Of a stretch of DNA of 64,000 nt, positions 4,132-27,290 are shown in pieces. Both the position numbers and the translations under genes were made by a program. The notes under the pieces are model-generated. The model was given only the letters and a program-made list of their open reading frames with translations. It did no database searches and had not been told where the DNA came from. The stretch is from contig CAWJSJ010000002.1 of the NCBI GenBank assembly GCA_963845565.1, positions 480,001 to 544,000 on the forward strand, given 5' to 3'. Every line of letters starts with the position of its first letter. Positions within the stretch are counted from its first letter, which is position 1. The stretch comes from an uncultured Methylomirabilota bacterium (GTDB lineage Bacteria > Methylomirabilota > Methylomirabilia > Methylomirabilales > 2-02-FULL-66-22).

Positions 4132-5190
4132 ATGAACAGTCGCGAGCGTTACACGCGGGCGATCACCTTCTCCGGACCGGACCGGGTCCCCGTCATGCAT
4201 CGCACGATCCCGGGCGCCTTCCGCCGCCACGGCGGAAGGCTGGAGGCCTTGTACGAGCGGTATCCCAGCGATGTGCTCCTCTCTCCGTCCACGCGTGCCT
4301 GGTTCGCCTTCAAGCGCGGCGTCGTGGAGTCAAGCGGAGCGCTCAAGGGCGTGACCGATGAGTGGGGCTGCGTCTGGGACAGCCTGAACGACGACTACCT
4401 GGGGCAGGTATTCGGTCACCCGTTGGACGACTGGGAGAAGTGGACCGGCTTCAAGTCGCCGGAACCCACGGTGGGCATCGCGGGCGTCCATGAGATGGTG
4501 GAGGCGGTGAAGGCGGACAGGCACCAACACTATTGCCTGATCGAGGTCGGCACCCTGTGGCACCTGACCAACTGGCTGCGCGGTTTCGAGAACTCGCTCG
4601 TGGATGTGGTCGAGGACCGGCCCGAGATGTACGAGCTCCGCGACCGGATCACCGATTTTCTGCTGAAGCGGGTCGAGATCCTGCTGCGCCATCGGGAGCA
4701 TATCGACGGCATCCTGGTGAACGACGACTGGGGAACCCAGGAGACCCTGATGATCCGCCCCGAGTACTGGCGGAAGGTGTACAAACCCGCGTACGCGAAG
4801 ATCGTGGCGGCCATCAAGAGCGGTGGGTGCTTTGCCCACCTCCATTCGGACGGCGTCACGGATGCGATCATGGACGACCTCATCGAGATCGGCTTTGACG
4901 AACTGAATCCACAGATGTCCTGCATGGACGTCGAATCAGTGGGGCGCCGCTTCGGCGGGCGCGTCTGCTTCCGGGCGGACATGGACCGGCAGTATGTGCT
5001 GCCGTTCGGAACGCCTGCCGACGTCTCTGCCTTGGTGGAGCAACTCGCGACCGCCTTTGGCTCCAAACGGGGCGGCTACATCGGCTACGGCCAGATCAAC
5101 ACCGACGTACCCATCGAGAATGCCGAGGCCATGTTGGCGGCGTTTGCAGGCATCCGGTTCCCGGCGGGAGGCGCGCCGGCCTCGAATTAG
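4132..5190 (+). CDS. Uroporphyrinogen decarboxylase/MtaA-CmuA family protein (putative corrinoid-dependent methyltransferase)
   Basis: MNSRER...PDRVP start, DDWGTQ, HLHSDG, ELNPQ, DRQ..LPFGT motifs; AGGAG RBS. Confidence 0.85.
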   Translation: MNSRERYTRAITFSGPDRVPVMHRTIPGAFRRHGGRLEALYERYPSDVLLSPSTRAWFAFKRGVVESSGALKGVTDEWGCVWDSLNDDYLGQVFGHPLDDWEKWTGFKSPEPTVGIAGVHEMVEAVKADRHQHYCLIEVGTLWHLTNWLRGFENSLVDVVEDRPEMYELRDRITDFLLKRVEILLRHREHIDGILVNDDWGTQETLMIRPEYWRKVYKPAYAKIVAAIKSGGCFAHLHSDGVTDAIMDDLIEIGFDELNPQMSCMDVESVGRRFGGRVCFRADMDRQYVLPFGTPADVSALVEQLATAFGSKRGGYIGYGQINTDVPIENAEAMLAAFAGIRFPAGGAPASN

Positions 5191-5339
5191 ACCGGCCCGC
5201 CCACTGAATCGTATTCCGCGCTTGCCGAACGGGTGCTTCCAGACTAGACTTCGCGAACCTGGTCTGCGAAACGCGCGTCATCGGTGCAGATCCCGGCGGC
5301 CTCCGCGGGGAAACACGAGAACCCAGTCGGGGTGTAGGC

Positions 5340-6464
5340 ATGACCAACCGTGAGCGTATCCTCGCCGTCCTCGACAAGAAGAGCCCGGACCGTGTTCCTT
5401 GGATCGCCCGGCTGGACCTGTGGTACCACGCGCGCCTCGCCGAGGGGAACCTGCCGACCCGGTTTCGGGGGATGAATCTCGTTGAGGTTGGACGCGCGCT
5501 TCGCACGGGCAACCCCGCCCGAGACGGCAAGATCTTCAACGTCCGCTACGAGGGCCTGGAGGTCCGCCAAGAGCGGGCGCCCGGCGTGGCGCGCCAGCGC
5601 TTCATCACGCCGCATGGGGAGGTCACCTTCGGGCGCATCCTCAGCGAGACAGTGTCTGGGACGACGGATCAAGGCCTGCCGCTGGAGCACCCGATCCATT
5701 CGGTAGAGGACTACAAGGTCCTGGAGTACATCGCCGAGCACACCTACTACGACCCCTGCTACAACGACTACCTGGCCTACGAGGCCGCGGTGGGAGACGA
5801 GGGATACCCCATGGTCTCGTGCGGGGACGTCCCGTTCCATTACTTCCTCCTGCACCTCGCCGGGTACAATCAGGCCTATTTCGAGATGGTGGATCATGCC
5901 GAGGAATTCGAGCACCTCATCGCCCTGATGGAGCAGGTCGACCGGGAGCGGCTGTGGCCCGTGGTCGCTGACTCGCCGGCGCGCCTCATCTTGCACGGGG
6001 TCCACTTCGACTCGCAAATGACGCCACCCCACATGTTCCGCAAGTACATGACCCCGTACTACAAGGACTTCAGCGCGTTGCTCCATGCGCGGGGGAAATC
6101 GCTGGTCTGGCACGCGGACGATGACTCCAAGGACATCCTGGCCGAGGTCAAGGACGCCGGTTTCGACATGTCCGAGTGCTTCTGCACGGCGCCCATGGTC
6201 GAGGTCACGCTGGAAGAAGCGCGAGCCGCCTGGAAAGGCGACGTCGCCATCTTCGGCGGCGTACCCTCCATCATCTTGGAGCCCACGTTCCCCGAAGTGG
6301 AGTTCGAGGAATACATGCGCGGCGTGTTCCGGACCATTGCGCCGGGTGACGCGTTCATCCTCGGCGTGGCGGATAACGTGATGCCGACCTCGATCATCGA
6401 GCGAGTGGAGCGGATTTCTGACCTCGTGGAACGACACGCAGCGTACCCGATCCAACCATACTGA
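5340..6464 (+). CDS. UroD/MtaA-fold protein (putative methyltransferase)
   Basis: MTNRERILA...PDRVP; WHADD; IFGGVP; FILGVADNVMP, a UroD TIM-barrel pattern. Confidence 0.8.
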   Translation: MTNRERILAVLDKKSPDRVPWIARLDLWYHARLAEGNLPTRFRGMNLVEVGRALRTGNPARDGKIFNVRYEGLEVRQERAPGVARQRFITPHGEVTFGRILSETVSGTTDQGLPLEHPIHSVEDYKVLEYIAEHTYYDPCYNDYLAYEAAVGDEGYPMVSCGDVPFHYFLLHLAGYNQAYFEMVDHAEEFEHLIALMEQVDRERLWPVVADSPARLILHGVHFDSQMTPPHMFRKYMTPYYKDFSALLHARGKSLVWHADDDSKDILAEVKDAGFDMSECFCTAPMVEVTLEEARAAWKGDVAIFGGVPSIILEPTFPEVEFEEYMRGVFRTIAPGDAFILGVADNVMPTSIIERVERISDLVERHAAYPIQPY

Positions 6465-6535
6465 CGCTGCCCGCAGCCGGGCGGACTGACTGAGCGACCG
6501 GTAGTGCAACTCCCCCCAACGTCAAGGAGGATCCC

Positions 6536-7171: not shown

Positions 7172-7311
7172 CAGGCTGCTGAACAAGGCCCATCTGCGGC
7201 GTTGACCCGCCTCGCCGCTCGCTGCGGCGTACCTCGTACGCCTCTCACTCGGCCTCGGGTACATCCGAGGACGGGGTGCCGCCTTGCATCTGGACCTTTT
7301 TGAGCAGCCTG
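7172..7311. repeat. Palindromic MITE/REP-like element, copy 1 (140 bp)
   Basis: Terminal inverted repeats CAGGCTGCTGAACAAGGCCCA / TGGACCTTTTTGAGCAGCCTG; homologous to 26519-26643; starts right after a TAG stop. Confidence 0.8.
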
Positions 7312-7367
7312 AGTAGGAACGAGCTCTCCAGCGGGCGCTAGAGCCGAGCGCTAACAAGGGGACAACC

Positions 7368-8429
7368 ATGATCGAACCGAATTTCGAGCGGTTCCGGACG
7401 ATGCTCCTGCGTCGCGGGGAGCCCGACCGGGTTCCCCTGGGTGATATCAGCGTCCACCCCATGCTGAAGGCCGGGGTGCTGGGCCGTCCGGTCCGCACCC
7501 CGGAGGACGAGGTCGCCTTCTGGGCCACGGCCGGTTTCGACTACGTCCCCATCGAGCAGGGGTTGCAGCTCACGGACGTGATCAAGCGGCAGTCCATGCA
7601 CGAGGTCGAGGCCCAGTACGCCGCGGATACCGCCGACACCCAGGTCCGCTCGTGGGCGACCGAAGGCAAGGGCCTGATCGCCACCCGCGCCGATCTCGAC
7701 GCGTTTCGCTGGCCCGACCCCGATGCCCTCGACTACGGCGCCTTCGAGCGCCTCGCGCCCCTCCTCCCGCCGAAGATGAAGGTCTTTGCTGTGGTGGGGA
7801 AGGTCTTCACCTGCGTGTCGTGGTTGATGGGCCTGGAGGGCCTGAGCTTCGCCCTCGCCGACGATCCCGAGCTGGTCGCCACGATCTGCGAACGAGTGGG
7901 ACGGTTTCAGCACCGGGTCGTCGAGACCCTCTTGCGCTACGACACGGTCGGCGCCCTCTGGCACGCCGACGACATCGCCTTCAAGACCCAACTCCTGGTG
8001 AGTCCTCGGCTCCTCCGAAGCCACGTGTTCCCTTGGTACACGGAAATGAACCGGATGGCGCATGCCAAGGGCGTGCCGGTGGTCTATCACAGCGATGGCG
8101 CGCTCCAGGAAGTGGTGGAGGACATCATTGGCTGCGGCTTCGACGGCCTGAACCCCATCGAGCCGCCGGCCATGGACATCACCGCCGTCAAGCGGCAATT
8201 CGGGAAGCGAATCGCCATCATCGGCAACATCGACCTCGGCTACACGTTGACGCGCGGCACCCCCGCCGAGGTCCGGGCCGAGGTCCGCCAGCGCATCCGC
8301 GACCTCGCCCCGGGCGGCGGCTATGCCGTGTCGTCCAGCAACTCGGTCCCGGAGTACGTCCCGCTGGCAAACTTCAACGCCATGCGCGAGGCAACGTTCG
8401 AATTCGGGCGGTATCCGATCACGGCGTAA
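7368..8429 (+). CDS. UroD/MtaA-fold protein (putative methyltransferase)
   Basis: EPDRVP, HADDIAF, YHSDG, LNPIE, IGNID, GGGYAVSSSNS motifs. Confidence 0.85.
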   Translation: MIEPNFERFRTMLLRRGEPDRVPLGDISVHPMLKAGVLGRPVRTPEDEVAFWATAGFDYVPIEQGLQLTDVIKRQSMHEVEAQYAADTADTQVRSWATEGKGLIATRADLDAFRWPDPDALDYGAFERLAPLLPPKMKVFAVVGKVFTCVSWLMGLEGLSFALADDPELVATICERVGRFQHRVVETLLRYDTVGALWHADDIAFKTQLLVSPRLLRSHVFPWYTEMNRMAHAKGVPVVYHSDGALQEVVEDIIGCGFDGLNPIEPPAMDITAVKRQFGKRIAIIGNIDLGYTLTRGTPAEVRAEVRQRIRDLAPGGGYAVSSSNSVPEYVPLANFNAMREATFEFGRYPITA

Positions 8430-8464
8430 GCGTGCGGATGCGTCCGCACCACGGAGGGAAGGTC

Positions 8465-9466
8465 ATGAGCAGATCGCGGCTGGTATTCGTGGGAGTCCTT
8501 CTTGCGGTCGCCGTCGCAGCGGGCATGATTGCCGTCCCCGCCCCTGCCCCGGCCGCCGAATTCGTCATCAAGCTCGGGCACGTGCTACCCACCAACGAGC
8601 CGATCCATCAGGCGAACGAGCGCATGGCGCAGCGGGTCAAGGAGAAGACCAAGGGCCGAGTCGAGATCCAGGTCTTTCCCGCGTCCCAGATCGGCTCTAA
8701 CCGGGACACCTACGAACAGGCGCGCATGGGCGCCCCCGTGATCTGTCACATCGACCCGGGCTATGCCGCCGAGCTGGGGGATCTCGACATCGCCATCATG
8801 AACGGGCCGTTCCTGTTCGAGAGCTGGGACCAGGCCAAGAAGGTCCTGTCCTCTCCGCTGGTCGGCGCGATGAACCAGAACCTCTTGAAGAATGGGAAGA
8901 TCCGGGTCCTCTCCTGGGGCTACTACTTCGGCCAGCGCCACATCATCAGCGACAAGGGGTATCCGACGCCGGCGGACATCAAGGGCAAGAAGGTCCGCGT
9001 CCCGCCAAACGTGATGTGGGTCGAGACCTTCAAGGCCATGGGTGCCGTCCCCACGCCGCTCCAGTGGGCCGAGGTCTATCAGGGGCTAGGCCAGGGCGTC
9101 GTGGATGCCGCCGAGGCGCCGCTTTCCACCCTGCTGGGGTCGAAGCTCCATGAAGTGAAGAAAGTGATCACCCTGACCGGCCACTTCAAGGCGGTTGTGG
9201 GCCTGGCCATCGGCGAACAGTATTTCCAGAGTCTCCCCAAGGACATCCAGCAACTCCTTATCGAGGAGGCCGAGGAGAACGGCCGCTGGGTGTCGCCCAT
9301 CACGATCCAGAAGGAAGACGAATTCAAGCAGGCCCTCGCCAAGGGCGGCGTGACGTTCGTCCAGGCCGATACCGAGGCCTATCGGAAAGCCACCCTCGCG
9401 ACCTACCAGGCGTTCCCCAAGTGGACCCCTGGGTTGTACGAAAAGGTCCAGGCGGCCATGAAGTAA
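8465..9466 (+). CDS. dctP: TRAP substrate-binding protein (DctP)
   Basis: GGAGG RBS, signal peptide, KLGHV, VFPASQIG, KVRVP, GLGQGVVDAAE. Confidence 0.93.
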   Translation: MSRSRLVFVGVLLAVAVAAGMIAVPAPAPAAEFVIKLGHVLPTNEPIHQANERMAQRVKEKTKGRVEIQVFPASQIGSNRDTYEQARMGAPVICHIDPGYAAELGDLDIAIMNGPFLFESWDQAKKVLSSPLVGAMNQNLLKNGKIRVLSWGYYFGQRHIISDKGYPTPADIKGKKVRVPPNVMWVETFKAMGAVPTPLQWAEVYQGLGQGVVDAAEAPLSTLLGSKLHEVKKVITLTGHFKAVVGLAIGEQYFQSLPKDIQQLLIEEAEENGRWVSPITIQKEDEFKQALAKGGVTFVQADTEAYRKATLATYQAFPKWTPGLYEKVQAAMK

Positions 9467-9467
9467 G

Positions 9468-10037
9468 ATGGCGGCATCCTCAAGTCCCGCCCTTTCCCCC
9501 CAGCACCCCGGGTTTTCCCCGGGGTGCTGGGGGTTTCTTCCGCTGCTCTTCCACCGCTTCGAGGAGATTGTCGGCGGGGCCGCCTTCGTCGCCATGACAG
9601 TGATGGTGTTCGTCAACGTCGTCTGCCGTTATGTCTTCGATAGCCCCATCGCCGGCTCCGACGAACTCGCGACTCTTGCCTTCACCTGGGCCACGTTCCT
9701 GGGCGCGAGCCTCGGCATCAAACGACAGATCCACTTGGGGATCGAGTTCGTCACGCGGCTCTTTCCGCTGCGCCTCCAGGCGCTGTGCGGGGTCATCGTG
9801 TCGGTGCTGGTCGCGGTCTTTGCCATGCTCCTGCTGGTCTATAGCTGGCAGATCATGCGCAGCGCGCATTTGAAAGTCACGCCGGTCCTCCAGTGGCCGT
9901 ATACCATCGTGTATCTCGCGGTTCCCGTCGGCGCCCTGCTCATGCTCCTGCGGCTCGCGCCTGTCGTCCGGGCGCAGGTCCGGCTCCTGTCCGGGCGGGG
10001 CGAGCGCACATCGTCCGCGGAGGCGGTTCCGCTATGA
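9468..10037 (+). CDS. dctQ: TRAP small permease (DctQ); true start may be downstream of the hairpin
   Basis: NVVCRYVF...SDELA..FTW..FLGAS...HLGIE motif. Confidence 0.88.
   Translation: MAASSSPALSPQHPGFSPGCWGFLPLLFHRFEEIVGGAAFVAMTVMVFVNVVCRYVFDSPIAGSDELATLAFTWATFLGASLGIKRQIHLGIEFVTRLFPLRLQALCGVIVSVLVAVFAMLLLVYSWQIMRSAHLKVTPVLQWPYTIVYLAVPVGALLMLLRLAPVVRAQVRLLSGRGERTSSAEAVPL
9497..9540 (+). terminator. 16-bp perfect GC hairpin plus T-rich tail after second dctP
   Basis: CCCCCAGCACCCCGGG-TTTTC-CCCGGGGTGCTGGGGG-TTTCTTC. Confidence 0.55.
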
Positions 10038-11323
10038 CGATGAGCTTGGTCTTTGCCAGCATGGCCGGGCTTCTGGCCTTCGGTTTGCCCATCGCGTTTT
10101 CCCTCGGGTTGGCGGCGTGCGTCTTTTTCCTGAGCGCGCCGGGCGTCTCTCCGGCGTTCATGATTCAGCGCATGGTGGCCACGACCGAATCCTTCCCGCT
10201 GCTCGCCGTCCCGTTTTTTATTTTCGCGGGTGCCGTCATGACCCAGGGCGGGATCACGGAGCGGATCTTCGGCCTGGCGGACGCTCTCGTGGGCCACCGG
10301 GTGGGCGGGCTGGCCCAGGTCAATGTCCTGAACAGCGTCTTCATCGGGGGGATGTCCGGCTCGGGGAACGCCGACGCGGCGATTGACTCGAAGACGCTGG
10401 TCCCCGTGATGGTATCCAAGGGCTACAGCAAGCCCTTCGCGGCTGCCGTGACGGCGGCGTCCGGCGTCATCGCGCCCATCATTCCGCCGGGAATCGGAAT
10501 GTTGATCTACGGCTTCATCGCGGATGTGTCCGTGGGACGGCTTTTCATCGGCGGGATCGTGCCCGGACTCCTGCTCGCGCTTGGTCTCATGATCGTCGTG
10601 CATATCGTTTCGAAGCGCCGCGGGTACGGGCGGCAGCGAGGGCACCGCGTTCCGTTCCGCGAGGTGCTCGGCCATGTGCGGCACGCGGCGTGGGCGCTGA
10701 TGCTGCCCGTGCTGATCCTCGTCGGTCTGCGTTTCGGGGCCTTCACGCCGACCGAGGCCGGCGCCGTGGCCGCCGCCTACGCGGTGTTCGTGGGGATGGT
10801 CGTCTACCGGGAACTCCACTGGCGGGACCTGGGACCGATCGTGGCCGAATCGCTGGCGGCGACCGCAGTCGTCATGCTGATCCTGGCCACCGCCAACGCG
10901 CTCATGTGGGCCCTCACGTGGGAGCGGATCCCCATGCAGATGGCCCAGGCGCTTTTCGCCCTGTCGGACAATCCCTACGTGATCCTGTTGCTGATCAACA
11001 TCCTCCTGCTCTTCCTCGGCTGTGTGATGGAGGGAACGGCGATCCTGATCATCCTCACGCCGATCTTGGTTCCCGTCATCGTCAAGCTTGGCATCGATCC
11101 CGTTCATTTCGGTCTGGTCTTCGTCATCAACCTCACCATAGGCGCGGTCACGCCGCCGGTGGGGACGATTCTCTACACGGTCTGCTCCATCGTCGGGGTC
11201 ACGGTAGAGGAGTTCACTCGAGAGCTCTGGCCGTTCCTGATAGCCTTGGTGGCGGTCCTCTTCCTGGTGACCTACTTCCCGCCCACCGTGCTGTGGCTTC
11301 CGAACCTCGTGATGGGAAAATAG
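10034..11323 (+). CDS. dctM: TRAP large permease (DctM)
   Basis: LLAVPFF, GGMSGS..ADAA, PIIPP, DPVHFG, TPPVG; ATGA overlap with dctQ. Confidence 0.95.
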   Translation: MTMSLVFASMAGLLAFGLPIAFSLGLAACVFFLSAPGVSPAFMIQRMVATTESFPLLAVPFFIFAGAVMTQGGITERIFGLADALVGHRVGGLAQVNVLNSVFIGGMSGSGNADAAIDSKTLVPVMVSKGYSKPFAAAVTAASGVIAPIIPPGIGMLIYGFIADVSVGRLFIGGIVPGLLLALGLMIVVHIVSKRRGYGRQRGHRVPFREVLGHVRHAAWALMLPVLILVGLRFGAFTPTEAGAVAAAYAVFVGMVVYRELHWRDLGPIVAESLAATAVVMLILATANALMWALTWERIPMQMAQALFALSDNPYVILLLINILLLFLGCVMEGTAILIILTPILVPVIVKLGIDPVHFGLVFVINLTIGAVTPPVGTILYTVCSIVGVTVEEFTRELWPFLIALVAVLFLVTYFPPTVLWLPNLVMGK

Positions 11324-11377
11324 AGGCCGCGACGCGCCGCCTTGGCCCCGTTCTGGCCCGGCCGGTCCGGCACAGGT

Positions 11378-11490
11378 ACACCGTCAAGGTGTTCTGGATC
11401 TACGTCCTGGTCCTGCTGTCCGGCCTCCTCGTCGTCGCCTTCTTCCCCGCCATCACGCTGGTTGCCCCGAAACTCGTTCCGGTCAGCTAG
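11378..11490 (+). repeat. 113-bp direct repeat, copy 1 (orphan 3' end of a dctM)
   Basis: Matches 27997-28109 with 3 mismatches; encodes TVKVFWIYVLVLL...KLVPVS*. Confidence 0.9.
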
Positions 11491-11807: not shown

Positions 11808-13692
11808 TCATGCCGCAGGCCGGCTCCGGCCCAGTGCGCGCAGGACGGTGGGGAAGTGCGAGGCCTCGGTGTGCGGGAGGAATGTGGCCTGAACGTAGCT
11901 GTCCATGTAGCGAGGGTCCGAGCTGAGGTCGAGGTAGGTCATGCGCGAGGCGATCTCGTCGAGCAGCCGCCGGTGCTCGCGGGACAGGAGCGCGATGTAG
12001 GCGCCGGTGAGCGCCGAGTTTCCGATGTAGCGGAAGTGCGTGCGCGGCAGGTCCGGCAGCATGCCGATCAGCACGGCGTCGGCGACGTCCAGGTAGCGCC
12101 CGAACCCCCCGGCAATGTAGACCCGCGCGATGTCGGCCCAGGACAGCCCGACGTTCTGCAGGATCAGGGCGCAGGCGGCGTAGATCGCCGCCTTGGTGCG
12201 GATGAGGTTGTCGATGTCCGCCTCGGTGAGGATGAGGTCCTCGCCGCTGGCGGTCTGCGCGCCCGTCTCCAGCCGGAAGCCCGGTCCCTGCCCCGTCTCC
12301 ACCAGCCGATCCGCCCCGCACTCCGGCTGCAGGTGGCCCGCAGAATCGACGATGCCGCGCAAGAACAACTCGCCCAGCAGGCAGATCAGGCCGGACCCGC
12401 ACATGCCCGCCGGACGCCGCCCGCCGATCACCTCGTAATCGCACGCGGTGGAGGTCGGGGCCGATCTCGACGTGCTCGATCGCGCCGCGGTGCGGCGCGC
12501 ATGCCGCACTTGATCCCGGAGCCCTCAAACGCCGGGCCGGCGGAGCAGGCGCAGCCCACCATCCAGTCGGCGTTGCCGATGACGATCTCGCCGTTGGTGC
12601 CGATGTCCATGAAGAGAAAGACCTCGTCGCGGGTCCGGGGAAATTCGGTCGCGAGCAGCCCGGCGGTGATGTCGCCGCCCGACGTAGCTGCCCACGCCCG
12701 GTGCGCACTCGCACCGGGGCCTGCGGGCGCGATCTCGAGCCCCACCTCGCCGGCGAGGAGCGGCGGGACGGGGTTCACGGTGGGCACGTACGGCGCCTCG
12801 CGGATGTGGCGCGGCGGCAGCCCCAGCAGCAGATGCATCATGGTGGTGTTGCCGGCCACGAACGCCGCCCGGATCCGCTCGCGCGGACGTCCGCCGCCAC
12901 CTCCCCGATCAGCCCGTTGATCGTCTCGAGCACCAGGCCGCGCAGCTCCTCCTGCCGCTCCGGCGTGCGCGCGTAGTCGATGCGGCTGATGATGTCCGCG
13001 CCGCGCCGGATCTGCTGGTTGTACGCCGGTGGCGGTCGCCAGGATGCGGCCGTCGGCAAGATCCACGAGTTGCGCGGCGACCGTCGTGGTGCCGATGTCG
13101 ATCGCGAGGCCGTAGGCGGGCGCGGACATCGAGGCCGGCCACGAGCTCCGTCACCCGACTGCCCGCCGGACCCTCCTCGATGCCGACCGCGACCCGGCCG
13201 TCTTGCTCCCGCAGCGTCTGCGGCCAGCTCCTGCAGCACGCCGAGGCCTGCCGCGATCGGTGTCGGGCAGCCGGCGCGTTCGAGTCCGCGGACCAGACGC
13301 AGCCAGTCGCTGTAGTGCTCTTCGATGGACGCGGGGGGCACGGTGAGGGACAGGTGGCGGAACAGGGGTGAGAGCGTACTCGCATCCGGCAGCGCCGCGG
13401 GTCCCGTCAGGAAGTGGCTGTCCCCGACCACCTCGCATGGCCAGGTCCTGCCGCTCCGGGATGCGAACCGTCACGTCCTCGCGGACCTTCGTCTGGCATG
13501 CGGGGACCAGGCGGCGCGCATCACCGCCCGACGACGCGACGATCTCGACCAGGCACAGTCCGCACGTCCCCTGCCCGCCGCAGGGCAGTTCGAGGTCCGC
13601 GATGCCCGCCCGGATCGCCGCCTCGTGAATCAGGCGTGCCCGCGGGCACCTCTGCCCGGACGTCCGCGGGCAGGAAGCGTAACCCAGGGCAT
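11808..13692 (-). CDS. acsV: Reductive activator of corrinoid proteins (RACo/AcsV, ASKHA family with N-terminal 2Fe-2S); frameshifted in this consensus
   Basis: Across frames: LPCGGQGTCGLC, AIDIGTTTV, NQQIRRGADIISRI, AGNTTMMHL, DIGTNGE, CSAGPAFEG, GMCGSG, IAGGFG, GNSALTGA. Confidence 0.88.
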
Positions 13693-13695
13693 GGC

Positions 13696-16010: not shown

Positions 16011-16599
16011 CGGCACGCGTGAAGGTCGTGGGGCACCAGGATCGCGGCGGACACGAGCGGCCGCTCGGCCGCGGCCGGCACGACCGGGGCCGGTGCGGCG
16101 AGCACGGCGCAGCCGGCGGCGCGAGCTGGCTGTCGGCGTCTCGACGCGGAGCGGCGCCACGGCGGCGGCGCTGCGCGACCGGGGCGGCGGCGACCGGCAG
16201 CCTGGCGCCGAGCGCGCCGCTGTACATCAGCAGCATGTTGGCGCCGGCGTGCAGCAGGTTGCAGCGCGGTGGACATCTGCAGCGCCGCCATCTGCTGCTC
16301 CGGCGTCATCGCCGGCTGCGCCGGCGTCGGCACGGCGCGTGCCGCAGCCTGCTCCAGCACCGAGATGACGTACGCCAGCCCGTCGCCGGCGTGCAGGTGC
16401 CGGTCGGCGCCGGTGCGCGGCGGCGCGGCGCACCGGACTGCGGCGTCGGGCGACCGGAACTCGGCGGCTGCCGACCTCGCGGCCGGCTGGCCGCTCCGGC
16501 GGCGCGACCGCGCGCTGCGGGCGCTGCGGCTGCCGCCTCGGCGCTGCGCCGCGCTCGCCGCATCGCCGCCGCGGCTTCGGGCGACGGCTGCGGTGATGT

Positions 16600-18790: not shown

Positions 18791-20761
18791 TCCAGCTCCC
18801 TCCTCTCCTTCATGTCGAAGAGCTTGCGCTCCTGCTTGCTCGTTGATGCCGCAGCGCGTCGCGCTTCTTCTCGATGTGCTCCAGGATCTTCTCGGCGGCC
18901 TGCACCGGATCGGGCTCCCAGTCGAATCGCCCGCCGGTGATCCCCTCCATCTCCTCGCAGAGCAGCTTGGTCACGTTCTCGCTGCCCTCGACGTAGAGCG
19001 GATGGCCCAGCACGACGTACATGCCCGCTGGCGACGAAGTAGTGGCCGATGGCGACCGCCTTCTCGCTCATCCACTCCGGCGCCGCGCCCGCCACCGGCA
19101 GGTCGGAGAGGTCCTCGCCCAGCCCGCCTTCGCTGCAGCACGTTGGTGGCGGCCATGCAGGATGCGGCTGTTGTCCACGCAGGAGCCCATGTGCAGCACC
19201 GGCGGGATGCCCACCGCCTCGCAGACCTCGCGCAGCGAGGCGCCGGCCTTCTCCAGCGCCGCCTCCGGCACCAGCAGCCCCGCCTTGGCGCAGGCGATGG
19301 CCGCGCAGCCGGTCTGCAGCACCAGCACGTTGCGCTTGATCAGCTCCTCGGCCAGCCGCACGTGCGCGTCGTCCGCCATCACCTTCGGGTTGCTGCAGCC
19401 GACGATGCCCGCCACGCCGCGGATGCGGCCGTCGATGATGGCGTCGTTCAGCGGGCGGAAGGTGCTGCGGAAGCGCCCGCCCAGCATGTGGAAGATGGTC
19501 TCGTTGGAGAAGCCGGCCACCAGCTCCATCGACTCGCTGCGGGATGTGCACCCGCGCCCGGTCGCGGTTGCGCGAAGTTGTCGATGGCCGCGCGGATCAG
19601 GTCGCAGCGCGTGCTCGTAGCCGTGCTGCCACGTCGAAGGTGATCTGCTCGGCGTCGAAGGTCTGCGCGATCTCCGAGGTGCTCACCAGCTTGGTGTGGA
19701 AGCACTTGGCCACCTGCGGCCAAGCGACGGCATCACGCACTGCACGTCGACGATCATCATCTCGACCGCGCCGGTGAGGATGGCCAGCTCCTGCTGCAGG
19801 AAGTTGCCGGCGATCGGCAGGCCGTGGCGCATCAGCACTTCGTTCGCCGTGCAGCAGATGCCGGCGATGTTGATGCCCGCGGCGCCCTTCGACTTGCGCG
19901 TAGGCCAGCAGCTCCGGGTCGCTGCGAGGCCACCGCCAGCATCTCGGAGAGCGTCGGCTCGTGGCCGTGGACGATGATGTTGACCTTGTCCTCGGCCAGC
20001 ACGCCCAGGTTCACCCTGCTGCGGATCGGGCTTGGGCGTGCCGAACAGGATGTCGCGAGACCATGGTCGCGATCATCGAGCCGACCCAGCCGTCCGCCAG
20101 GCTGCACTTCAGCCCGCCCATGATCAGGTGGCGGTAGTCGTGGTCCACGCCCATGTGGGTGCGGTGCATCAGTTCGACGACCGCGGAGTCGATGCCCGTT
20201 CGGCTCGATCTCCAGCTTCTTCCAGAGCGCCTGCCGCTTCTCCGGCGCCAGCCTCAGCGTCGCGTTGGGCTCCTCGGACCAGGCGAACTGGCGCCATGAA
20301 GAAATCCGCCAGGTCGCCGGCGATCTCCAGGTCGCCGCGGCCGTCCGTCGCGATCTCGAAGAACCGCGCCGCCTCCCGCAGCCGGCGCGGATCGGTGATC
20401 TTGTACTCGCCGCCCTTGCCCTCGCGCCACCAGCTTCAGCGTCGCACCAGCATGCGCCCGTGGTCGGAGTGCGCCGCCGTCCCCGCCGCGATCTCGCGCA
20501 GCAGGTTGCGCGCGACGATGGTGTCGGCATCGGCGCCGCAGATGCCCGAGCTTGGCCTTGGGCGTGATGCGGCACGGCCCCATGTGGCACAGCCGGCAGC
20601 AGACGCCCGTCCGTGCCGAACTTGCACTGCGGCTGCTGGCTCTTGTAGCGGTCCCAGACCGTGGGGATCTCCTCGGCTCTGGCGATGTTGCACCATCTCG
20701 TTGATGGCCGGGTCGCGCGAGACCTGCCTTCACGACCGGGCTGTTCGAGCTCGGTTGACAT
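18787..20761 (-). CDS. acsA: Anaerobic Ni-CO dehydrogenase catalytic subunit (CooS/AcsA); frameshifted
   Basis: QCKFG..GVCCRLCHMGPC, GICGA, AAHSDHGR, HGHEP, GICCTANE, DVQC, GCSNPK, TGCAA, GSCVDNSR, EWMSEKAV. Confidence 0.95.
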
Positions 20762-20773
20762 CAGTCCCCTCCC

Positions 20774-21552
20774 CTATCCGACCTGCGCTGTCGCGAATAG
20801 CCTCTCCATCAGCGCGTCCACGGCGCGCCGCGCCGGCGCGTCCTGCGGGATCGTCTGCACGCTCATCCCGCCGGCGTCCATCGCCGCGACGGCCGGGTCC
20901 AGCGGGATCGCCGCCAGCAGCGGCAGCCCGGTCGCCCCGACCTCCGCCGTCAAGCGCCGCCGGCAGGACGCCCTCCGGCACGCGGTTGACGATCAGCCCG
21001 CGCGTCCTCGCCGGCGAGTCCCACCTCATCGGCCAGCGTCGGAGATCCGTCGCGGCCGTGCGCACGCCGCGCACGCGTGCAGTCGGAGACGATCAGCAGG
21101 TAGTCGAGCGCAAGCAGCGTGCGGCGCGAGATGTGCTCCAGCCCGGCCTCGCTGTCGAGCACGATGTGCTTGTAGTTGCCGCGACAGCCGGTCGAGCACG
21201 TCGCGCAGCACGTTGTTGGCGAAGCAGTAGCAGCCCTGGCCCTCCGGGCGCCCCATCACGATCAGGTCGTAGCCGTGCCTGCTCCACCAGCGCCTCCTGC
21301 ACGCGCAGGTCCAGGAACTCCTGCTTGGCGATGCCCGGTCAGCCGCGCCGCGTCGCTCCGGGCACTCTCGCGGATGCCGCCGACGGTGGCCGCGTAGGAG
21401 ACGCCCAGCGCCTCGTGCAGGTTGGCGTTGGAGTCGGCGTCCACGGCCAGCACGGGCGCCTCGCCCCGCGCCACCAGCCAGTCGATGGCCAGCGCCGAGA
21501 GCGTCGTCTTGCCGACGCCGCCCTTGCCGGTCATCGCCATCGTGAATCCCAT
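20774..21552 (-). CDS. cooC: CooC/AcsF nickel-insertion ATPase; frameshifted
   Basis: GKGGVGKTT, VDADSNANL, MGRPEGQGCYCFAN, DSEAGLEHISR. Confidence 0.9.
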
Positions 21553-21662
21553 GCGGTGCCCTCGATTCCAACCGTCAATCCCCAGGCGAGGGGCGGCCAG
21601 GCTCCGGAGCGCCGCACCCTGCGGTCGAGCCGTTCCCGGCACGAGCCCCGGCGGCGGGACAG

Positions 21663-22732
21663 TCAGGCCACTCCCAGCCGCGTCCGCAGGATCCGGCTCG
21701 TCTGGCCGAGCAGCTGGAAGACGCGCTCCGCGTCCGCGACCGGCAGCGAACCGGTGCCGCAGGAGGGCGTGATCACCGCCTGCCGCATGATCAGCTCGCG
21801 GCTCGAGCCCGGTGGCCTTGGCCAGGTTGTCCACCAGCCGCGTCGAACTTCGCCACCAGGCTCTCCGACCGTCTGCGCCTGGATCTTGGCGCTGTTGGTC
21901 GGCACGACGCCCCACGCCAGCGCCTTGCCGGCTTCGAGGTGGCGCTTCACCGCCTCCGGATACAGGGCGATGGTCTCGCCGTAGTCGAACGCGTCGAAGT
22001 TGACGATGATCCACGCCGGCGTCGATCAGGATCGACCACTCGGTGTTGCCGCAGCAGTGGACGCCCGGCCAGCGCGCCCTCGGCGTGCACGGCCTCGATC
22101 ACCTCGCCCAGCTTCGCCACCACGTCGTCGCGCGTGACGCTGACGTAGGTGGAGGAGCCGAAGGCCGACAGGATCGGCTCGTCGATGAAGCAGATGACGC
22201 CGCTCGGCGTACGGGCTGAACTTGCGGATCTGCCAGCGGCACTTCATCGCCAGCGCCTTGACCACCACGTCGACGAACTCCTCGTTGTAGTAGATGGCGC
22301 GCTTGTTCTCGTCGACGATGGTCAGCCCGAAGCTGATCGGCCCGGTGGTCTGCACCTTCACGAACGGGCGCTTGCCGCCCGGCCGCCTTCAGCGCCGCTT
22401 CCATCGCGTAGATGCCCTTGCGAGAACTCCGGCGTGATCGCGGAAGCAGTCGACGTTCTCGGCCAGGAACTTCTCGTAGAAGGTGGCCAGATCCATCGAA
22501 GTGTCGCCGGTGGTGTCGATGTACATGCGCTCCTTCTCGCGGTCGATCACCACGCGCGGCAGGCCCTCGGAGTACTGGATCTCCATCTGCTCGTTCAGCC
22601 CGCTGCGCCGGCAGCTGCGGCCAGATCGGGGCGTCGGGGATGTTGTCGAGGACGACGCGCACGGCGTCTTCGGCCTTGGCGTGCGGCAGGCTGCCGATAG
22701 CCGGTGGCCAGACATCGGGGCTGGAAACTCAT
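21663..22732 (-). CDS. Core (folate-independent) methionine synthase, MesB-like; frameshifted
   Basis: ATG.GSLPH...PIWPQLP; KVQTTGPISFG; FIDEP; GVHCCGN; LAWGVVPT; ITPSCG; MetE C-terminal-like Zn ligands, no folate-binding half. Confidence 0.75.
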
Positions 22733-22744
22733 GGGAGCGCTCCT

Positions 22745-23550
22745 TCTCTGATCCTCGAACCGTTGGGTCAGCATCCGCTGCATCGCGCGGAATGGGGCGA
22801 GCAGATCGTCCTGGCCCGCAGTCCACCAGCGATTGACCGTGCCGGTCGGCCTGCGCGATGCGCGGATCGAACGGGATCGCAGCCGAGCAGCTGCGTCGGC
22901 GCCGAATTCCTCGACCGATCCAGCGCGTGTCCTCCGCGATCGCCGTCGATTTGTTCAGCACGACCGCGAAGCGCCGGATGCCGAGCGCGGCGGCCATCTC
23001 GCGCACGCGGTGCGCCGTCTCGACGCTGCGCCGCCCCGGCTCCACCACCACCAGCATCAGGTCGACGCCCATGGCGGTGCCGCGCCCGAGGTGCTCGATG
23101 CCGGCCTCCATGTCCAGGATCACCACGTCGCTCGCGGCGCAGCACCAGGTGCGCGCACCAGAGCCTTCAGCAGCACGCTCTCCGGGACAGGCGCAGCCGC
23201 CCGCCGCGCGCTGCGCCGCGCCCGAGCACCAGCAGATCGACGTCCCGGCGTGGCGCGTGCCGTACTGCTCGGCGATGCCGCTCACGTCGGGGTTCAGCCT
23301 GAACATCTGCCCGAACTCGCTGCACCTTGGCCCCGGTGCGCTCCTCGATGAGCTGCCGCTCCTCGGAGATGGTGTGGATCGAGCGGCGCAGCTCTGCGGG
23401 CACGCCCAGCGCCGAGGCCAGGTTGGCATCCGGGTCGGCATCGATGGCCAGCACCCGGCGCCCCTCGGCCGCGAACAGCCGCGCCAGCGTCCCGGCCAGG
23501 GTGGACTTCCCCACCCCTCCCTTCCCCGTGATGGCCAGCTTCAGTCCCAC
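22745..23550 (-). CDS. cooC: Second CooC-type Ni-insertion ATPase; frameshifted, 3' end approximate
   Basis: LKLAITGKGGVGKST, IDADPDANLA, GGCACP, DMEAGIEHLGRGT. Confidence 0.9.
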
Positions 23551-23561
23551 CGTTCCCCCAC

Positions 23562-23592
23562 AATCCCCGAATCGCCCAGTCGCCGACTCGCC
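23562..23592. repeat. 8-bp-period tandem motif (A[A/G/C]TC[G/C]CC[G/C]), 4 units
   Basis: aatccccg-aatcgccc-agtcgccg-actcgcc; same family as the nuo-operon octamers. Confidence 0.5.
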
Positions 23593-24509
23593 TACTTCCC
23601 CCGCCGCCCGCGCACCACCCCCGCGATGGCCTTGATGTGCGCGGGCGTGCTGCCGCAGCAGGCCCCCACGATCCGTGCCCCGGCGTCCAGGATCGCCGGG
23701 AACGCGGCCGCCATGCCCTCGGGCGAGAGATCGTAGACCGTTTTGTCCCCGACGATCTTGGGGATGCCGGCGTTGGGGTAGGCCGCCAGGAAGCCGGGAG
23801 TCGCCGTTCGCATCTCCGCCAGGATGGCCGGTACGCGCCCCGGCCCCCCGTCGCCGCAATTGCAGCAGACGATGTCGGCGCCGGCCGCGACCAGCTGCCG
23901 GGCAGCCTCGGCGGGGCTGGTCCCCCACATGGTCCGGTCGGTGCCCTTGGCGGCGTTGTACTGGAAGGTCATGCTGCACATCACCGGCAGCCCGGTCGCC
24001 TCCTTGGCCGCCTTGATGGCCAGCACCGCCTCGTCCGGGATCATCATGGTCTCGATGGCGAACAGATCCACACCGCCCTCGGCCAACGCCACGGCCTGCT
24101 CGCGGAAGCTCTCGTAAAACAGCTCCGCCGGCGTGTCGCCCAGCGGCTCGAAGGTGTCGGGCAGGTGACCCGTCGGGCCGACGGAGCCCGCCACCAAGCC
24201 GCCCGCAGGGCAGACGGCCCGAGCCAGGCGCGCCCCCTTTTCATTCAGCTCCCGACAGCGCTCCGCCAATCCATAGGCCTTCAACTTGAGCTGGGTTCCC
24301 CCGAAGGTGTTGGTCTCGATCATGTCGCTGCCCGCCTCGAGGTAGGCGCGATGGACACCCTGGAGGACCTCCGGCCGCTCCGCGTTCCACAATTCCGGAC
24401 AGGCGCCGGGCGCCAGCCCCGCGGCGAACAGCATCGTTCCCATCGCCCCGTCGAAGACCAGCACCTCGGACTGCAGTCGCTCCAGCAAGCCCTTCCCCCG
24501 AGATTCCAT
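23592..24509 (-). CDS. Homocysteine S-methyltransferase domain protein (stand-alone MetH Hcy domain)
   Basis: VFDGAMGT, ETNTFG, GSVGPTG, IETM, CCNC, YPNAG, GACCGS Zn motif; intact ORF. Confidence 0.9.
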   Translation of the reverse strand: MESRGKGLLERLQSEVLVFDGAMGTMLFAAGLAPGACPELWNAERPEVLQGVHRAYLEAGSDMIETNTFGGTQLKLKAYGLAERCRELNEKGARLARAVCPAGGLVAGSVGPTGHLPDTFEPLGDTPAELFYESFREQAVALAEGGVDLFAIETMMIPDEAVLAIKAAKEATGLPVMCSMTFQYNAAKGTDRTMWGTSPAEAARQLVAAGADIVCCNCGDGGPGRVPAILAEMRTATPGFLAAYPNAGIPKIVGDKTVYDLSPEGMAAAFPAILDAGARIVGACCGSTPAHIKAIAGVVRGRRGK

Positions 24510-24695
24510 GCCCACACACTCCTTCTCATGAGTAGGACGGGAAGACGATCGTTGTCGCAGGCGGTTGTCCCACCGGAAGCACATTATCCGGAGGCGGCCT
24601 GGTTTGGTATAGACGCGGATGGTCGAAAGATGGAACACTCTTGCTGTCATCCGAGCCATGGGGCGGGATTTTTCCACAATTTCGGGCATCGCGGC

Positions 24696-25922
24696 ATGAA
24701 ACATCGATCGTTGTTGCCACCGGGCACCCTCCGGCGGATCCGCGGAGAATACCGTCGGCGCTACGGGCTGGAGGCCCATCCGGTCTCCTGCGACGGCTCG
24801 GTCCTGAACGGACCCTCGTCCGCCGTCCGCAATCTGCCCCTTCTGAAGCGGGCCCGCGCCGACGCCCTGCAAGAGAGCGTGCGCTGGGGGGAGCCCTACT
24901 CGTTTTTCCTGACCCCCGGGATCGTCTCCTGGATCGTGCCGGGGGTGGACGGCGAGGTCGTGCACGGGGGCCTCGGCGGAGGCGAGGTGCGCTCCCACGA
25001 GGACCCGCAGGACCGCAGCGAGGCCGTCAATTATCTCCTGAGCGCGGGCGCGACTCGTCCCGCAGCCGAACGCTATGTGAGCGGCCTACCGATCTGGCCT
25101 CAGTCCCGCACACCTGAGGCGGAGGCCTGGCTGCTCGCGCGCCTCTACATTCTGACAGGCTGGAAGCCCACCCTTCTCGATCGCAATCGCGAGAACGCCC
25201 AGCAGCAAGGACAGATCGCCGAGGAGATCCACCGGCGCAAGACCGCCGATCCGGGCGCCTATCCGCTGGATCAGGAGCGGGAGCTCCTGGCCCTGATCCG
25301 GGTCGGCGATCGGGTTGGCGTGCGCCGCGGCCTGAACCGGCTGATCGCCCACGTCTTCGTCCATTCCACGCGAATCCCCCTGGTGCAGGCCCGCATGATC
25401 GAGCTGCTGGGGTACCTGGTGCGGGCCGCGGTGGAGGACAATCCCGCGCTCGATTCCCTGGTCGAGCGCCACATCCAGTGGATCGAGCGCGTGATCGCCG
25501 CCAAGGACTTCGAGGGCTCCTGCGCCGCCCTGCGCGAGGCGCTGGACGAGTTCATCGACCAGATCGGGCTCCAGGGGTTCAACCGGCACAACCGCCACGT
25601 CAGCCGGATCCTGGAATTCCTCTCGCAGAACTACACGCGCACGATCCGCCTGGACGAGGCCGCCGCGCGGGCCGGCCTGAGCCGGTTTCGCGTGGCCCAC
25701 CTGGTCAAGGAATGCACCGGGAAGACCATCCAGCAGCACATCAAGCGCCTGCGCATCCAGAAGGCGCGGACCTGGCTGGAAGAGACCGACAAGGACTTCG
25801 CCGACATCGCGCACGAATTGGGGTTCTCGGACCAGAGCCACTTCATCCGCCATTTCCGCGACGTGACGGGTCTGACGCCCGCCCGGTACCGGCGCACCGT
25901 CGCCCTCGGGAAGACCTCATGA
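24696..25922 (+). CDS. AraC-family regulator with PocR-like N-terminal sensor
   Basis: C-terminal double HTH (IRLDEAA...IAHELGFSDQSHFIRHF...TPARYR); divergent from the acs cluster. Confidence 0.88.
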   Translation: MKHRSLLPPGTLRRIRGEYRRRYGLEAHPVSCDGSVLNGPSSAVRNLPLLKRARADALQESVRWGEPYSFFLTPGIVSWIVPGVDGEVVHGGLGGGEVRSHEDPQDRSEAVNYLLSAGATRPAAERYVSGLPIWPQSRTPEAEAWLLARLYILTGWKPTLLDRNRENAQQQGQIAEEIHRRKTADPGAYPLDQERELLALIRVGDRVGVRRGLNRLIAHVFVHSTRIPLVQARMIELLGYLVRAAVEDNPALDSLVERHIQWIERVIAAKDFEGSCAALREALDEFIDQIGLQGFNRHNRHVSRILEFLSQNYTRTIRLDEAAARAGLSRFRVAHLVKECTGKTIQQHIKRLRIQKARTWLEETDKDFADIAHELGFSDQSHFIRHFRDVTGLTPARYRRTVALGKTS

Positions 25923-26518
25923 GCCTGCAGGATGCGCAGCGCGAGGCCGTGCGCCGCGCCGCCGCCGATCTTGTCGGGGTCGAGATGGCTTCGCGCTGCC
26001 GGCTGCTCGGGCTGCCCCAGCCGCAGGCGGGCGCGGTTCGCTTCCGGGCCTTCGGCCTGAACCTGGTCCTGCGCCTCCCAGGTTTCGATCTCACGCTGGC
26101 CGAGGGGAGCGCGCCCGCCCGGCTCGGAGATCAACTGCTTGTCTTGCACTACCTGCGGTGCGCCGTGTCGCCGGCGCCGACCGGCGAGCCGATCAACTTC
26201 CGAGATTTGCCGGGCGGCCGGGTCTACTGGCAGCCGTTCCTGTCCCGCAGCATCGCGCCGCTGCTGCGCGCGATCGGCAACGATCTGGAGCGGCTCACGC
26301 GCCACCTGGACCGCTTCGACTGGCAGCCGGTGGCGGCGGGGGACCTGGGGGCCCGTATTCACGCCCTCGGCAGGATCGAGGCCACGCTGGTCTATCGAAA
26401 AGGCGACGAGGAGTTCGGGCCGACCGCAGAGTTGCTCTTCGACGCCTGCATCAGGCGCGTCTACACGACAGAGGACGTGGCGTACCTCGCGGGCCGAATC
26501 TGCCTCGGCTTGCTATGA
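25919..26518 (+). CDS. DUF3786-like protein
   Basis: LLVLHYL...INFRDLPGG..Y...F..R; GDEEF...A.LLFD...TEDV; ATGA overlap. Confidence 0.75.
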   Translation: MSLQDAQREAVRRAAADLVGVEMASRCRLLGLPQPQAGAVRFRAFGLNLVLRLPGFDLTLAEGSAPARLGDQLLVLHYLRCAVSPAPTGEPINFRDLPGGRVYWQPFLSRSIAPLLRAIGNDLERLTRHLDRFDWQPVAAGDLGARIHALGRIEATLVYRKGDEEFGPTAELLFDACIRRVYTTEDVAYLAGRICLGLL

Positions 26519-26643
26519 TGGGTCGCTGAAAAAGGCCCATCTGTGTCGTTGGCACGCCTCGGCACTCGCTGCGGCGTACCTCCAGTACGCCTCGCTCGGC
26601 CTGTGGCGCGCCGCCTTGCATCTGGACCTTTTTGAGCAACCCA
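26519..26643. repeat. Palindromic MITE/REP-like element, copy 2 (125 bp)
   Basis: TGGGTCGCTGAAAAAGGCCCATCTG...CTCGCTGCGGCGTACCTC...GCCGCCTTGCATCTGGACCTTTTTGAGCAACCCA; starts right after a TGA stop. Confidence 0.8.
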
Positions 26644-26690
26644 AGCGTACGCAGATTCGTCAGCAGACTGCAGGGATGAGAGGAGAGTCG

Positions 26691-27290
26691 ATGATGCCGC
26701 GCTGCCCGGGTCAGGATCTGCGCTTCTGGACCCCCAAAGATATCTTCGACGTCGGCTGTCCGCACTGCGGCAGGACGATCGAATTCTGGAAGGACGACCC
26801 CAGCCGCCGCTGCCCCGGCTGCGGCCGCGAGGCGCGCAATCCGCGTCTGGATCTGGGTTGCGCCGAATGGTGCAAGTACGCCGCGGAGTGCCTCGGGCAG
26901 GGCGCGGTGGGCTCAGCCGCGGTGGCGCCGGTGATCGACCGGCTGGAGCTGCTCCTCGACGGCTACTGCGCGACCGATCCGCAGGCCGGGCCCCGCGCCC
27001 GCCGCTGCCTGGGCCGCGCCCAGCAGATCATCCTGGCGGACCAGGTCGACCCGTGCGTCCTGCAGACCGCGGCACTCCTGGTGGGAGCGCTGGCCGAGCG
27101 GGGCGCCCCCGGCCCCGAAGAATCCACAGCCATCCAGGCCATGCTGGAACGGGCCGGCATCGCCGCGGAGGTCGCGCGCCGGATCCGCGACCTGGTGCAG
27201 GCGGTACGCTCCAGCAGGGCCCTCCCCGGCCCGGAATATCGCGCCCTGGCGAAACTCTGGAGCCTGGAGGGGCCCTCCCCCGGCGCCTAA
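26691..27290 (+). CDS. Cys-rich N-terminal domain plus degenerate HD-like domain protein
   Basis: RCPGQD...CPHCG..IEFWKDD...CPGCG...GCAEWCKYAAEC; C-terminal helices look HD-like but read AALLVGA rather than a LHD motif. Confidence 0.65.
   Translation: MMPRCPGQDLRFWTPKDIFDVGCPHCGRTIEFWKDDPSRRCPGCGREARNPRLDLGCAEWCKYAAECLGQGAVGSAAVAPVIDRLELLLDGYCATDPQAGPRARRCLGRAQQIILADQVDPCVLQTAALLVGALAERGAPGPEESTAIQAMLERAGIAAEVARRIRDLVQAVRSSRALPGPEYRALAKLWSLEGPSPGA

Follow-up and report, generated by a model that had tools for sequence, protein, structure and literature searches.

A CODH/ACS cassette without acsE as a probable folate-independent link between acetyl-CoA and methionine in a Methylomirabilota genome

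The window (the whole stretch of DNA that was analysed) comprises 64,000 nucleotides of an uncultured bacterium of the Methylomirabilales, and corresponds to positions 480001-544000 of contig C2 in the source genome, G000 (5.36 Mb in 6 contigs, completeness 98.7%, contamination 6.4%). At approximately 11.8-27.3 kb it contains a gene cassette for CO dehydrogenase/acetyl-CoA synthase (CODH/ACS) from which acsE is absent. Pfam searches of the window identify CODH (Prismane), ACS, a CdhD-family protein, RACo, two CooC-type ATPases, an S-methyl_trans domain, a B12-binding domain, three URO-D proteins and two DctPQM sets. An earlier reading of the window from its sequence only had listed acsA, acsB, acsC, acsD, two cooC genes and RACo, all of which are found, with the correction that a single fused gene takes the place of acsB and acsD. 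Comparisons were made within the genus (21 genomes including G000), using the ACS-positive members G012 and G002 as well as G004, G009, G013 and others; G012 carries an intact, syntenic copy of the cassette. The cassette and adjoining genes are:

11808-13692, minus strand: RACo/AcsV corrinoid reductive activase; matched in pieces by Pfam; 88% DNA identity to G012; 3' third intact, remainder frameshifted in the assembly
13701-15047, minus strand: acsC, large subunit of the corrinoid iron-sulfur protein (CFeSP); frameshifted in the assembly; four Fe-S cysteines retained
15060-18790, minus strand: acsB::acsD fusion, encoding acetyl-CoA synthase, an Ala/Pro linker and a bacterial-type CFeSP small subunit; frameshifted in the assembly; six A-cluster cysteines retained
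18787-20763, minus strand: acsA/cooS, Ni-CODH; frameshifted in the assembly; cluster ligands retained; G012 copy scores 671 bits with TIGR01702, cut-off 478
20770-21552, minus strand: cooC-type Ni-insertion ATPase 2; 3' end approximate; frameshifted
21667-22732, minus strand: MesB-like core methionine synthase; frameshifted in the assembly; S14, D181, H222, C224, D243 and C320 retained
22735-23550, minus strand: cooC-type ATPase 1; 3' end approximate; frameshifted
23592-24509, minus strand: stand-alone MetH-type homocysteine S-methyltransferase domain (Hcy-MT); PF02574, 238 bits; intact; Zn cysteines retained
24681-25922, plus strand: divergent AraC-family regulator; start approximate; adjoins the cassette in G012 and G002 too
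25919-26518, plus strand: DUF3786 protein; PF12654, 113 bits; adjoins the cassette in locus L087 too
26691-27290, plus strand: protein with a Cys-rich, zinc-ribbon-like N-terminal region; no Pfam or NCBIfam match; homologues at ~17/80 loci; adjoins the cassette in other phyla too

In G012 the acsB and acsD genes form a single open reading frame (ORF) of 1213 residues, which matches NF040764 with 1029 bits over residues 10-724 and PRK04452 with 373 bits over residues 898-1209. The same join is present in G002, and in the window ORF 15743-16606 runs from the end of AcsB through the linker into the start of AcsD without a stop codon. The AcsD part is of the bacterial type, its closest structure being Moorella 4djd_D (282 bits), and an archaeal-type CFeSP that works independently of AcsE was judged unlikely for this reason. 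The G012 AcsA, AcsB, AcsC and AcsD proteins pass their respective models (TIGR01702, NF040764, PRK04165 and PRK04452), and the four canonical Wood-Ljungdahl proteins are thus present together with their metal ligands. The cassette RACo is the only RACo found in G000; 18 of 20 relatives have a RACo.

Profile searches bear out the earlier observation that the window holds no acsE, fhs, folD or metF. MetF and FolD are encoded elsewhere on contig C2, and the genome contains a full-length MetH. The only Pterin_bind matches in G000 are a FolP-sized ORF and the 1154-residue MetH, and the same two proteins were all that was retrieved by tblastn and by an AcsE profile, built from 6 sequences and run with --max on all six-frame pieces of at least 25 residues. 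A hidden or frameshifted acsE was rejected on these results, and the genes of the cassette leave no space in which one could lie. No match to Fhs was found in G000, G012 or G002, and no stand-alone AcsE in G012 or G002. The genome-wide check that the sequence-only reading had proposed therefore yields, in a genome that is 98.7% complete, neither AcsE nor a complete methyl branch (Fhs, FolD and MetF). The folate bypass suggested there applies to the cassette and not to the cell: since the host has metF, folD and MetH, it possesses a normal folate route to methionine and is not folate-free.

The MesB-like gene has no Pfam match, but shows 82% DNA identity to the intact G012 gene. It encodes a protein of 351 residues, for which the predicted model (pLDDT 94) consists of a single MetE-type barrel without a folate half, as in MesB (~340 residues); the top Foldseek matches are MetE, and the ESM Atlas label is 'methionine synthase family' (0.97). 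The Zn ligands H222, C224, D243 and C320 and the homocysteine-binding residues S14 and D181 do not vary in any of the 46 rows of the alignment. Their spacing agrees with that in Dehalococcoides MesB (H, C, D and C at 214, 216, 235 and 311; S and D at 15 and 177; PMC7857596), and, as for MesB, the gene co-occurs with acsC and acsD. A search of the protein against PDB chains gave spurious repeat matches only, and the Meth_synt_2 family has no match in G000, G012 or G002. Prediction of a complex between MesB and residues 60-446 of AcsC (46-row alignments each) gave a score of 0.00, which is no answer and counts as evidence neither way. MesB presumably pairs with CFeSP for methyl transfer.

Both the MesB-like synthase and the homocysteine methyltransferase domain had been noticed in the sequence-only reading, and they are upheld by the G012 alignment and by PF02574, respectively. 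G000 encodes another stand-alone homocysteine methyltransferase, which shares 88% identity with that of the cassette, at C2:67559-68446 (locus L129:9554-10468), near a cobalamin adenosyltransferase gene. Stand-alone proteins of the paralogue's kind occur in ACS-negative genus relatives, and in G002 no Hcy-MT separates the araC and cooC genes at the cassette. The likely partner of Hcy-MT is a stand-alone corrinoid protein, such as the one encoded at the left of the window.

The gene order cooC-mesB-cooC-acsA-acsB::acsD-acsC-RACo, often with a stand-alone homocysteine methyltransferase, recurs in many phyla. In its own phylum the cassette is rare: ACS was found in 3 of the 21 genus genomes and 3 of 61 order genomes tested, and mesB, among 251 genomes of the phylum, in exactly these three. 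The cassette is also present in soil Acidobacteriota and other groups. Cross-phylum loci were taken as the best 80 of 578 relatives with the acsB::acsD fusion protein as query, and the counts that follow are therefore biased towards the fusion and derive from related, non-independent genomes. A fusion-length ORF (at least 1090 residues) is present in 60 of the 80 loci, none of which has acsE in the retrieved flank, where it was scored. mesB accompanies 49 of the 51 fused loci with 5 kb of upstream DNA; among the 36 fused loci with both flanks, mesB is found at 35, Hcy-MT at 27 and a corrinoid gene at 4. All six acsE loci among the 80 are unfused and lack mesB, so that acsE and mesB are mutually exclusive near acsB in this sample. 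The fused clade has as its sister two loci of Acidobacteriaceae (L045 and L048), in which acsB and acsD are individual genes, acsE is present and mesB is absent, a contrast that is useful for the origin of the cassette.

At seven Acidobacteriota loci the cassette runs on downstream into a corrinoid gene; in the three annotated ones (L033, L036 and L040, at ~18000-23400) the cassette is followed by cbiZ, cbiB, an adenosyltransferase gene, in some cases cobQ, and the corrinoid gene, a set for cobamide salvage. In G012 (L013:1858-9313) the cassette has, at a distance of 4-8 kb, genes for an ABC transporter of the betaine type, for two MttB proteins and for a corrinoid protein 86% identical to that of the window. 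Whole-genome checks covered 44 of the 60 fusion-locus genomes, of unknown completeness; a stand-alone corrinoid protein with close similarity (44-59% identity, E<=1e-48) occurs in 35 of these 44 versus 1 of 6 acsE genomes, a comparison that has no background control. The distribution is best explained by horizontal spread of a mobile-looking cassette.

On balance, the cassette at ~11.8-27.3 kb probably links acetyl-CoA to methionine without folate, for use under anoxia, with Hcy-MT as a second route. ACS would cleave acetyl-CoA and pass the methyl group to the tethered CFeSP, formed by AcsC and the fused AcsD, from which MesB would transfer it to Zn-bound homocysteine; CODH would oxidise the CO to CO2, RACo would rescue Co(II) and the two CooC proteins would insert Ni. 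The stand-alone Hcy-MT may provide a second entry to methionine, taking methyl groups from the free corrinoid protein, which in turn might be loaded from imported methylated solutes by UroD-like enzymes (in G012 also by MttB-like enzymes). Both routes would converge on methionine and may share RACo, with no methyl group passing from the UroD-corrinoid genes into ACS. We infer the direction of flux and the substrates in this scheme; the cleavage direction, already put forward in the sequence-only reading, fits the evidence and equals the published Dehalococcoides model (PMC7005905, PMC7857596).

In Dehalococcoides mccartyi, which is without acsE and CODH, methyl transfer from CFeSP to a core MetE has been proposed (Deobald 2020, PMC7005905). 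MesB was defined and tied to AcsC/AcsD by Price 2021 (PMC7857596), where the methyl donor was left untested and mesB is described as clustering with acsC/acsD in some methanogens. The window shares with D. mccartyi the absence of acsE, the MesB-type Zn enzyme (H-x-C...D...C) and the proposed flow from acetyl-CoA via CFeSP to homocysteine. Unlike in D. mccartyi, which has no CODH and releases CO, mesB here lies in an operon with CODH; the window also has the AcsB::AcsD fusion and a second, MetH-type homocysteine methyltransferase, in a host that retains MetH and MetF and shows matches to heme-copper oxidase. The CODH/ACS of acetogens (Moorella, Carboxydothermus, Clostridium) is resembled in AcsA, AcsB and AcsC scores over curated cut-offs, in the ligands, the bacterial AcsD, the cooC pair and RACo, but differs from the window cassette in that the latter has no AcsE, a fused AcsB::AcsD and mesB in the operon, within a genome without Fhs.

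A further parallel is MtgBCD of Ruegeria pomeroyi, in which one corrinoid protein serves both betaine demethylation and methionine synthesis through separate domains (Mausz 2025, PMC12478193). The window likewise has a free corrinoid protein and a stand-alone Hcy domain, and MttB, corrinoid and betaine-type transporter genes adjoin the G012 cassette. Unlike MtgBCD, the window has uncharacterised UroD-like proteins fed by TRAP systems as first-step enzymes, and RACo is present; a stand-alone pterin MtgD and an MttB/MtgB protein were not found in G000, where pterin matches are FolP and MetH only and tblastn with G012 MttB gave none at E<=1e-8. A literature search, mostly outside subscription journals and supplements (genomes of this kind could appear in S1 Table of PMC7857596), returned no description of the cassette or of an AcsB-AcsD fusion. 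The cassette is a real and widespread variant of a published idea, seen here in an uncommon host lineage and as a copy of which the assembly is poor.

To the left of the cassette lies a module of UroD-superfamily and corrinoid genes with two tripartite ATP-independent periplasmic (TRAP) transport systems. The features of the module and of the insertion site are:

1006-3865, plus strand: TRAP system 1 (dctP, dctQ, dctM); Pfam DctP/DctQ/DctM
4132-5190, plus strand: UroD-superfamily protein 1, candidate substrate:corrinoid methyltransferase; URO-D 38 bits; TIGR01463 31 bits, cut-off 235
5340-6464, plus strand: UroD-superfamily protein 2; URO-D 38 bits; TIGR01463 19 bits
6536-7171, plus strand: stand-alone corrinoid protein with cap and B12-binding domain and DxHxxG motif (DLHDIG at 99); Pfam; TIGR02370 205.5, cut-off 215
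7368-8429, plus strand: UroD-superfamily protein 3; URO-D 74 bits; MtaA models 38-51 bits, far under cut-off
8465-11323, plus strand: TRAP system 2 (dctP, dctQ, dctM); Pfam
11378-11489, plus strand: left copy of a 112-bp direct repeat (dctM 3' end), 98% identical to 27997-28108; one end of the inserted block
27404-28109, plus strand: dctM remnant, the 3' part of the ancestral gene, ending in the right 112-bp repeat copy; 80% DNA identity to the G013 dctM that joins the module to PRT-nuo genes

The corrinoid protein, the three UroD-fold proteins and the two TRAP systems of the sequence-only reading are recovered by Pfam, TRAP system 1 lying to the left of the region which that reading had delimited. 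The label UroD/MtaA holds for the URO-D superfamily and fails for the MtaA family, since the three proteins score only 19-51 bits with MtaA models that have cut-offs of 235-400. With the MtaA/CmuA (MT2) model TIGR01463 they reach 19-38 bits against 235, and HSDG or HADD stands at the motif site (HSDG in UroD protein 1) where HxC, which we take to be the MtaA-type zinc motif, would be expected. MtaA-like proteins (Mlps) have been defined by more than 25% identity to coenzyme M methyltransferases (Kountz and Balskus, PMC10418091); like the Mlp clusters of non-methanogenic bacteria, the module combines UroD-superfamily proteins with a corrinoid protein, and unlike Mlps its UroD proteins show neither the MtaA-level scores nor the HxC motif. 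The nearest solved relatives of the TRAP 1 DctP are binding proteins of the sialic-acid and sugar-acid type (~175 bits), and the DctP ligands of both TRAP systems could not be named, the solved relatives being too distant. In all, G000 has 23 URO-D matches, of which one is HemE-like and ~20 are distant, besides only two free corrinoid proteins and one RACo, which points to a large uncharacterised family in the genus. The second corrinoid protein is followed by a UroD-like gene and DUF1638 at L130:9317-11916 (G000:C2 ~1272300-1274900).

A conserved TRAP-fed network with the cassette, as envisaged in the sequence-only reading, finds no support as a genetic unit. The module occurs throughout the genus: of the 18 ACS-negative genomes, at least 9 have two or more of its UroD/corrinoid genes grouped in one place, and Hcy-MT, RACo and the corrinoid module each occur without ACS in genus members. 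In G012 and G002 module and cassette are on different contigs, so that the two adjoin in only 1 of 3 cassette-bearing genus genomes, and no DctP or DctM match lies beside acsB in the 80 loci. The module is instead linked to PRT-nuo genes, directly via dctM in G013, at ~4.5 kb in G012 and at ~9 kb in G004. The dctM remnant at 27404-28109, the last 112 bp of which are repeated at 11378-11489 (the only two copies in G000), indicates that the cassette was inserted into this older module-nuo locus, and a single insertion best explains the adjacency in the window. A functional tie through Hcy-MT, the free corrinoid protein and RACo is possible.

Several observations weigh against a dedicated link to methionine. 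Its chief weakness is redundancy, as G000 has MetH, MetF and FolD and a long ORF of the MetH type occurs in 25 of the 44 cassette genomes, and the upkeep of a 12-kb Ni/Fe/Co system for methionine alone demands explanation. Fhs is present in 23 of the 44 genomes, and a short pterin-type methyltransferase ORF occurs somewhere in 11-12 of them (one above 200 bits). The MesB class is a putative one, assigned from ligand spacing, fold and co-occurrence, and the 80 loci, retrieved by means of the fusion protein, come from non-independent kin.

It is also conceivable, though improbable, that this organism has no functional locus here and that the copy in the window is a decayed island or a foreign block joined during assembly. 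Every gene between approximately 12.4 and 23.3 kb is in pieces, with RACo, acsC, acsB::acsD, acsA, both cooC genes and mesB frameshifted at a density of ~1 per 100 bp in the interior. Compared with the intact G012 copies of eight genes, however, the window has 112 single-base insertions and very few deletions (4 of the insertions fall within the Hcy-MT gene, the frame of which is still open), and contigs from four public runs are without the listed inserted bases. There are 0 stops in 3962 codons compared, and substitutions are concentrated at third codon positions; the cysteines of CODH, the A-cluster, the AcsC Fe-S site, RACo and Hcy-MT and the MesB ligands are retained in window codons, one codon being unreadable. 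Pseudogene decay was judged unlikely because stops are absent and ligands are kept. A decayed or foreign block would agree with the best DNA matches of interior segments, which vary among taxa, with the window AcsB row, which forms a very short basal branch that is not sister to G012 (quick tree, 76 rows), with the contamination of the genome, with the direct repeat at both ends and with a left junction that no listed contig bridges. Against this, both cassette ends match G012 best, the cassette Hcy-MT is 88% identical to the paralogue elsewhere in G000, and the block contains a repeat that has 176 copies in this genome. In run X2, which may be the source sample, the flanks show 0-3 differences and the interior differs by ~10%, and depth is alike for cassette and flanks (~6-11). 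A genome-wide frameshift proxy (bins 0.64-0.65 versus a median of 0.73) did not single out the region and was not used. We read the frameshifted interior as a mixed or poorly polished consensus over a real locus, and the true cassette genes are presumably intact.

The two other readings concern the source or fate of the methyl group. CFeSP might keep an ordinary folate link, exchanging methyl groups with methyltetrahydrofolate via the MetH pterin domain in trans, via an unrecognised methyltransferase or by itself in the archaeal style, with MesB as a side branch. The presence of MetF, FolD and MetH in G000, the short pterin-type proteins and Fhs of some cassette genomes and the AcsE-independent archaeal CFeSP (PMC13370988, whose accessible text does not mention an AcsB-AcsD fusion) would suit such a link, which we nevertheless hold to be quite unlikely: AcsD is bacterial-type (4djd_D, 282 bits), Fhs was not found in three Methylomirabilales genomes, the six-frame AcsE profile yields MetH and FolP only, and acsE and mesB exclude each other near acsB in the 80 loci. 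Alternatively, the cassette might serve folate-free methylotrophic synthesis of acetyl-CoA, in which an imported methyl group would pass from a UroD or MttB enzyme to the corrinoid protein and on to CFeSP, where ACS would join it to CO derived from CO2; the transfer to CFeSP could be direct, or use a homocysteine/methionine shuttle with Hcy-MT running forward and MesB backward. This, too, appears unlikely. The two different homocysteine methyltransferases in one operon (27 of 36 fully flanked loci) speak for it, but the G002 cassette lacks Hcy-MT at this position, and the transfer of methyl from methionine to Co(I), as the shuttle demands, is uphill. The close corrinoid protein in 35 of 44 cassette versus 1 of 6 acsE genomes (no background control), the downstream corrinoid gene at 7 Acidobacteriota loci, the corrinoid, MttB and betaine transporter genes 4-8 kb from the G012 cassette and the sole RACo of G000 are in its favour. 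No enzyme for corrinoid-to-CFeSP transfer was identified, however, the UroD proteins score far under the MtaA cut-offs, and the UroD module, which at least 9 ACS-negative genomes contain, is linked to the cassette in neither G012 nor G002. The route from imported substrates via corrinoid and CFeSP to ACS, which the sequence-only reading had offered, has no direct support. It is equally unlikely that the cassette is a folate-free methyl hub, with the free corrinoid protein loaded by a large UroD-like family, and that heterotrophs from soils and sediments in many phyla, oxidase-bearing Methylomirabilales included, thereby build acetyl-CoA out of CO2 and methyl groups and need neither AcsE nor tetrahydrofolate; if so, this would be a novel path by which methylated solutes reach acetyl-CoA.

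If the cassette does link acetyl-CoA to methionine, matches to acsA and acsB in numerous genomes from soil, wetland and sediment (among them Acidobacteriota, Verrucomicrobiota, Planctomycetota and Methylomirabilota) would mark methionine supply and not CO2 fixation or acetogenesis, and metagenome counts of the Wood-Ljungdahl pathway would change. The operon is a compact natural test system for the prediction that the MesB methyl group comes from CFeSP, and the tethered ACS-CFeSP is an object for structural work. The host had been called unusual, which is true insofar as it has heme-copper oxidase matches and the cassette is found in 3 of 251 genomes of the phylum, and less so in that soil Acidobacteriota and others carry the cassette. 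Several partial matches to NiFe-hydrogenase large subunits and two genes for heme-copper oxidase subunit I are present in G000 (C1 534000-625000 and C2); these enzymes are possible sinks for CODH electrons. RNA run X19 contains related contigs of ~90% identity, by which transcription of the window copy is not shown. No claim is made on habitat, because a search of sequencing runs gave small shares only (maximum 0.15).

To the right of the insertion the window contains the following:

28106-29923: MFS/spermidine-synthase fusion gene (NF037959), with a copy at a different site in G009
32517-41752: nuo run C, D, H, J, K, L, M, N
41923-44043: 706-residue ORF upstream of nuoC; no Pfam or NCBIfam match; candidate frame

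The nuo run consists of these eight genes only: between D, H and J there is no room for an E, F, G or I gene. A single frameshift near 35311 splits nuoM. An intergenic repeat of ~115 bp is found at 26525-26641 and 7178-7309 of the window; it has 176 copies in G000 and many in G009 and other members of the genus.

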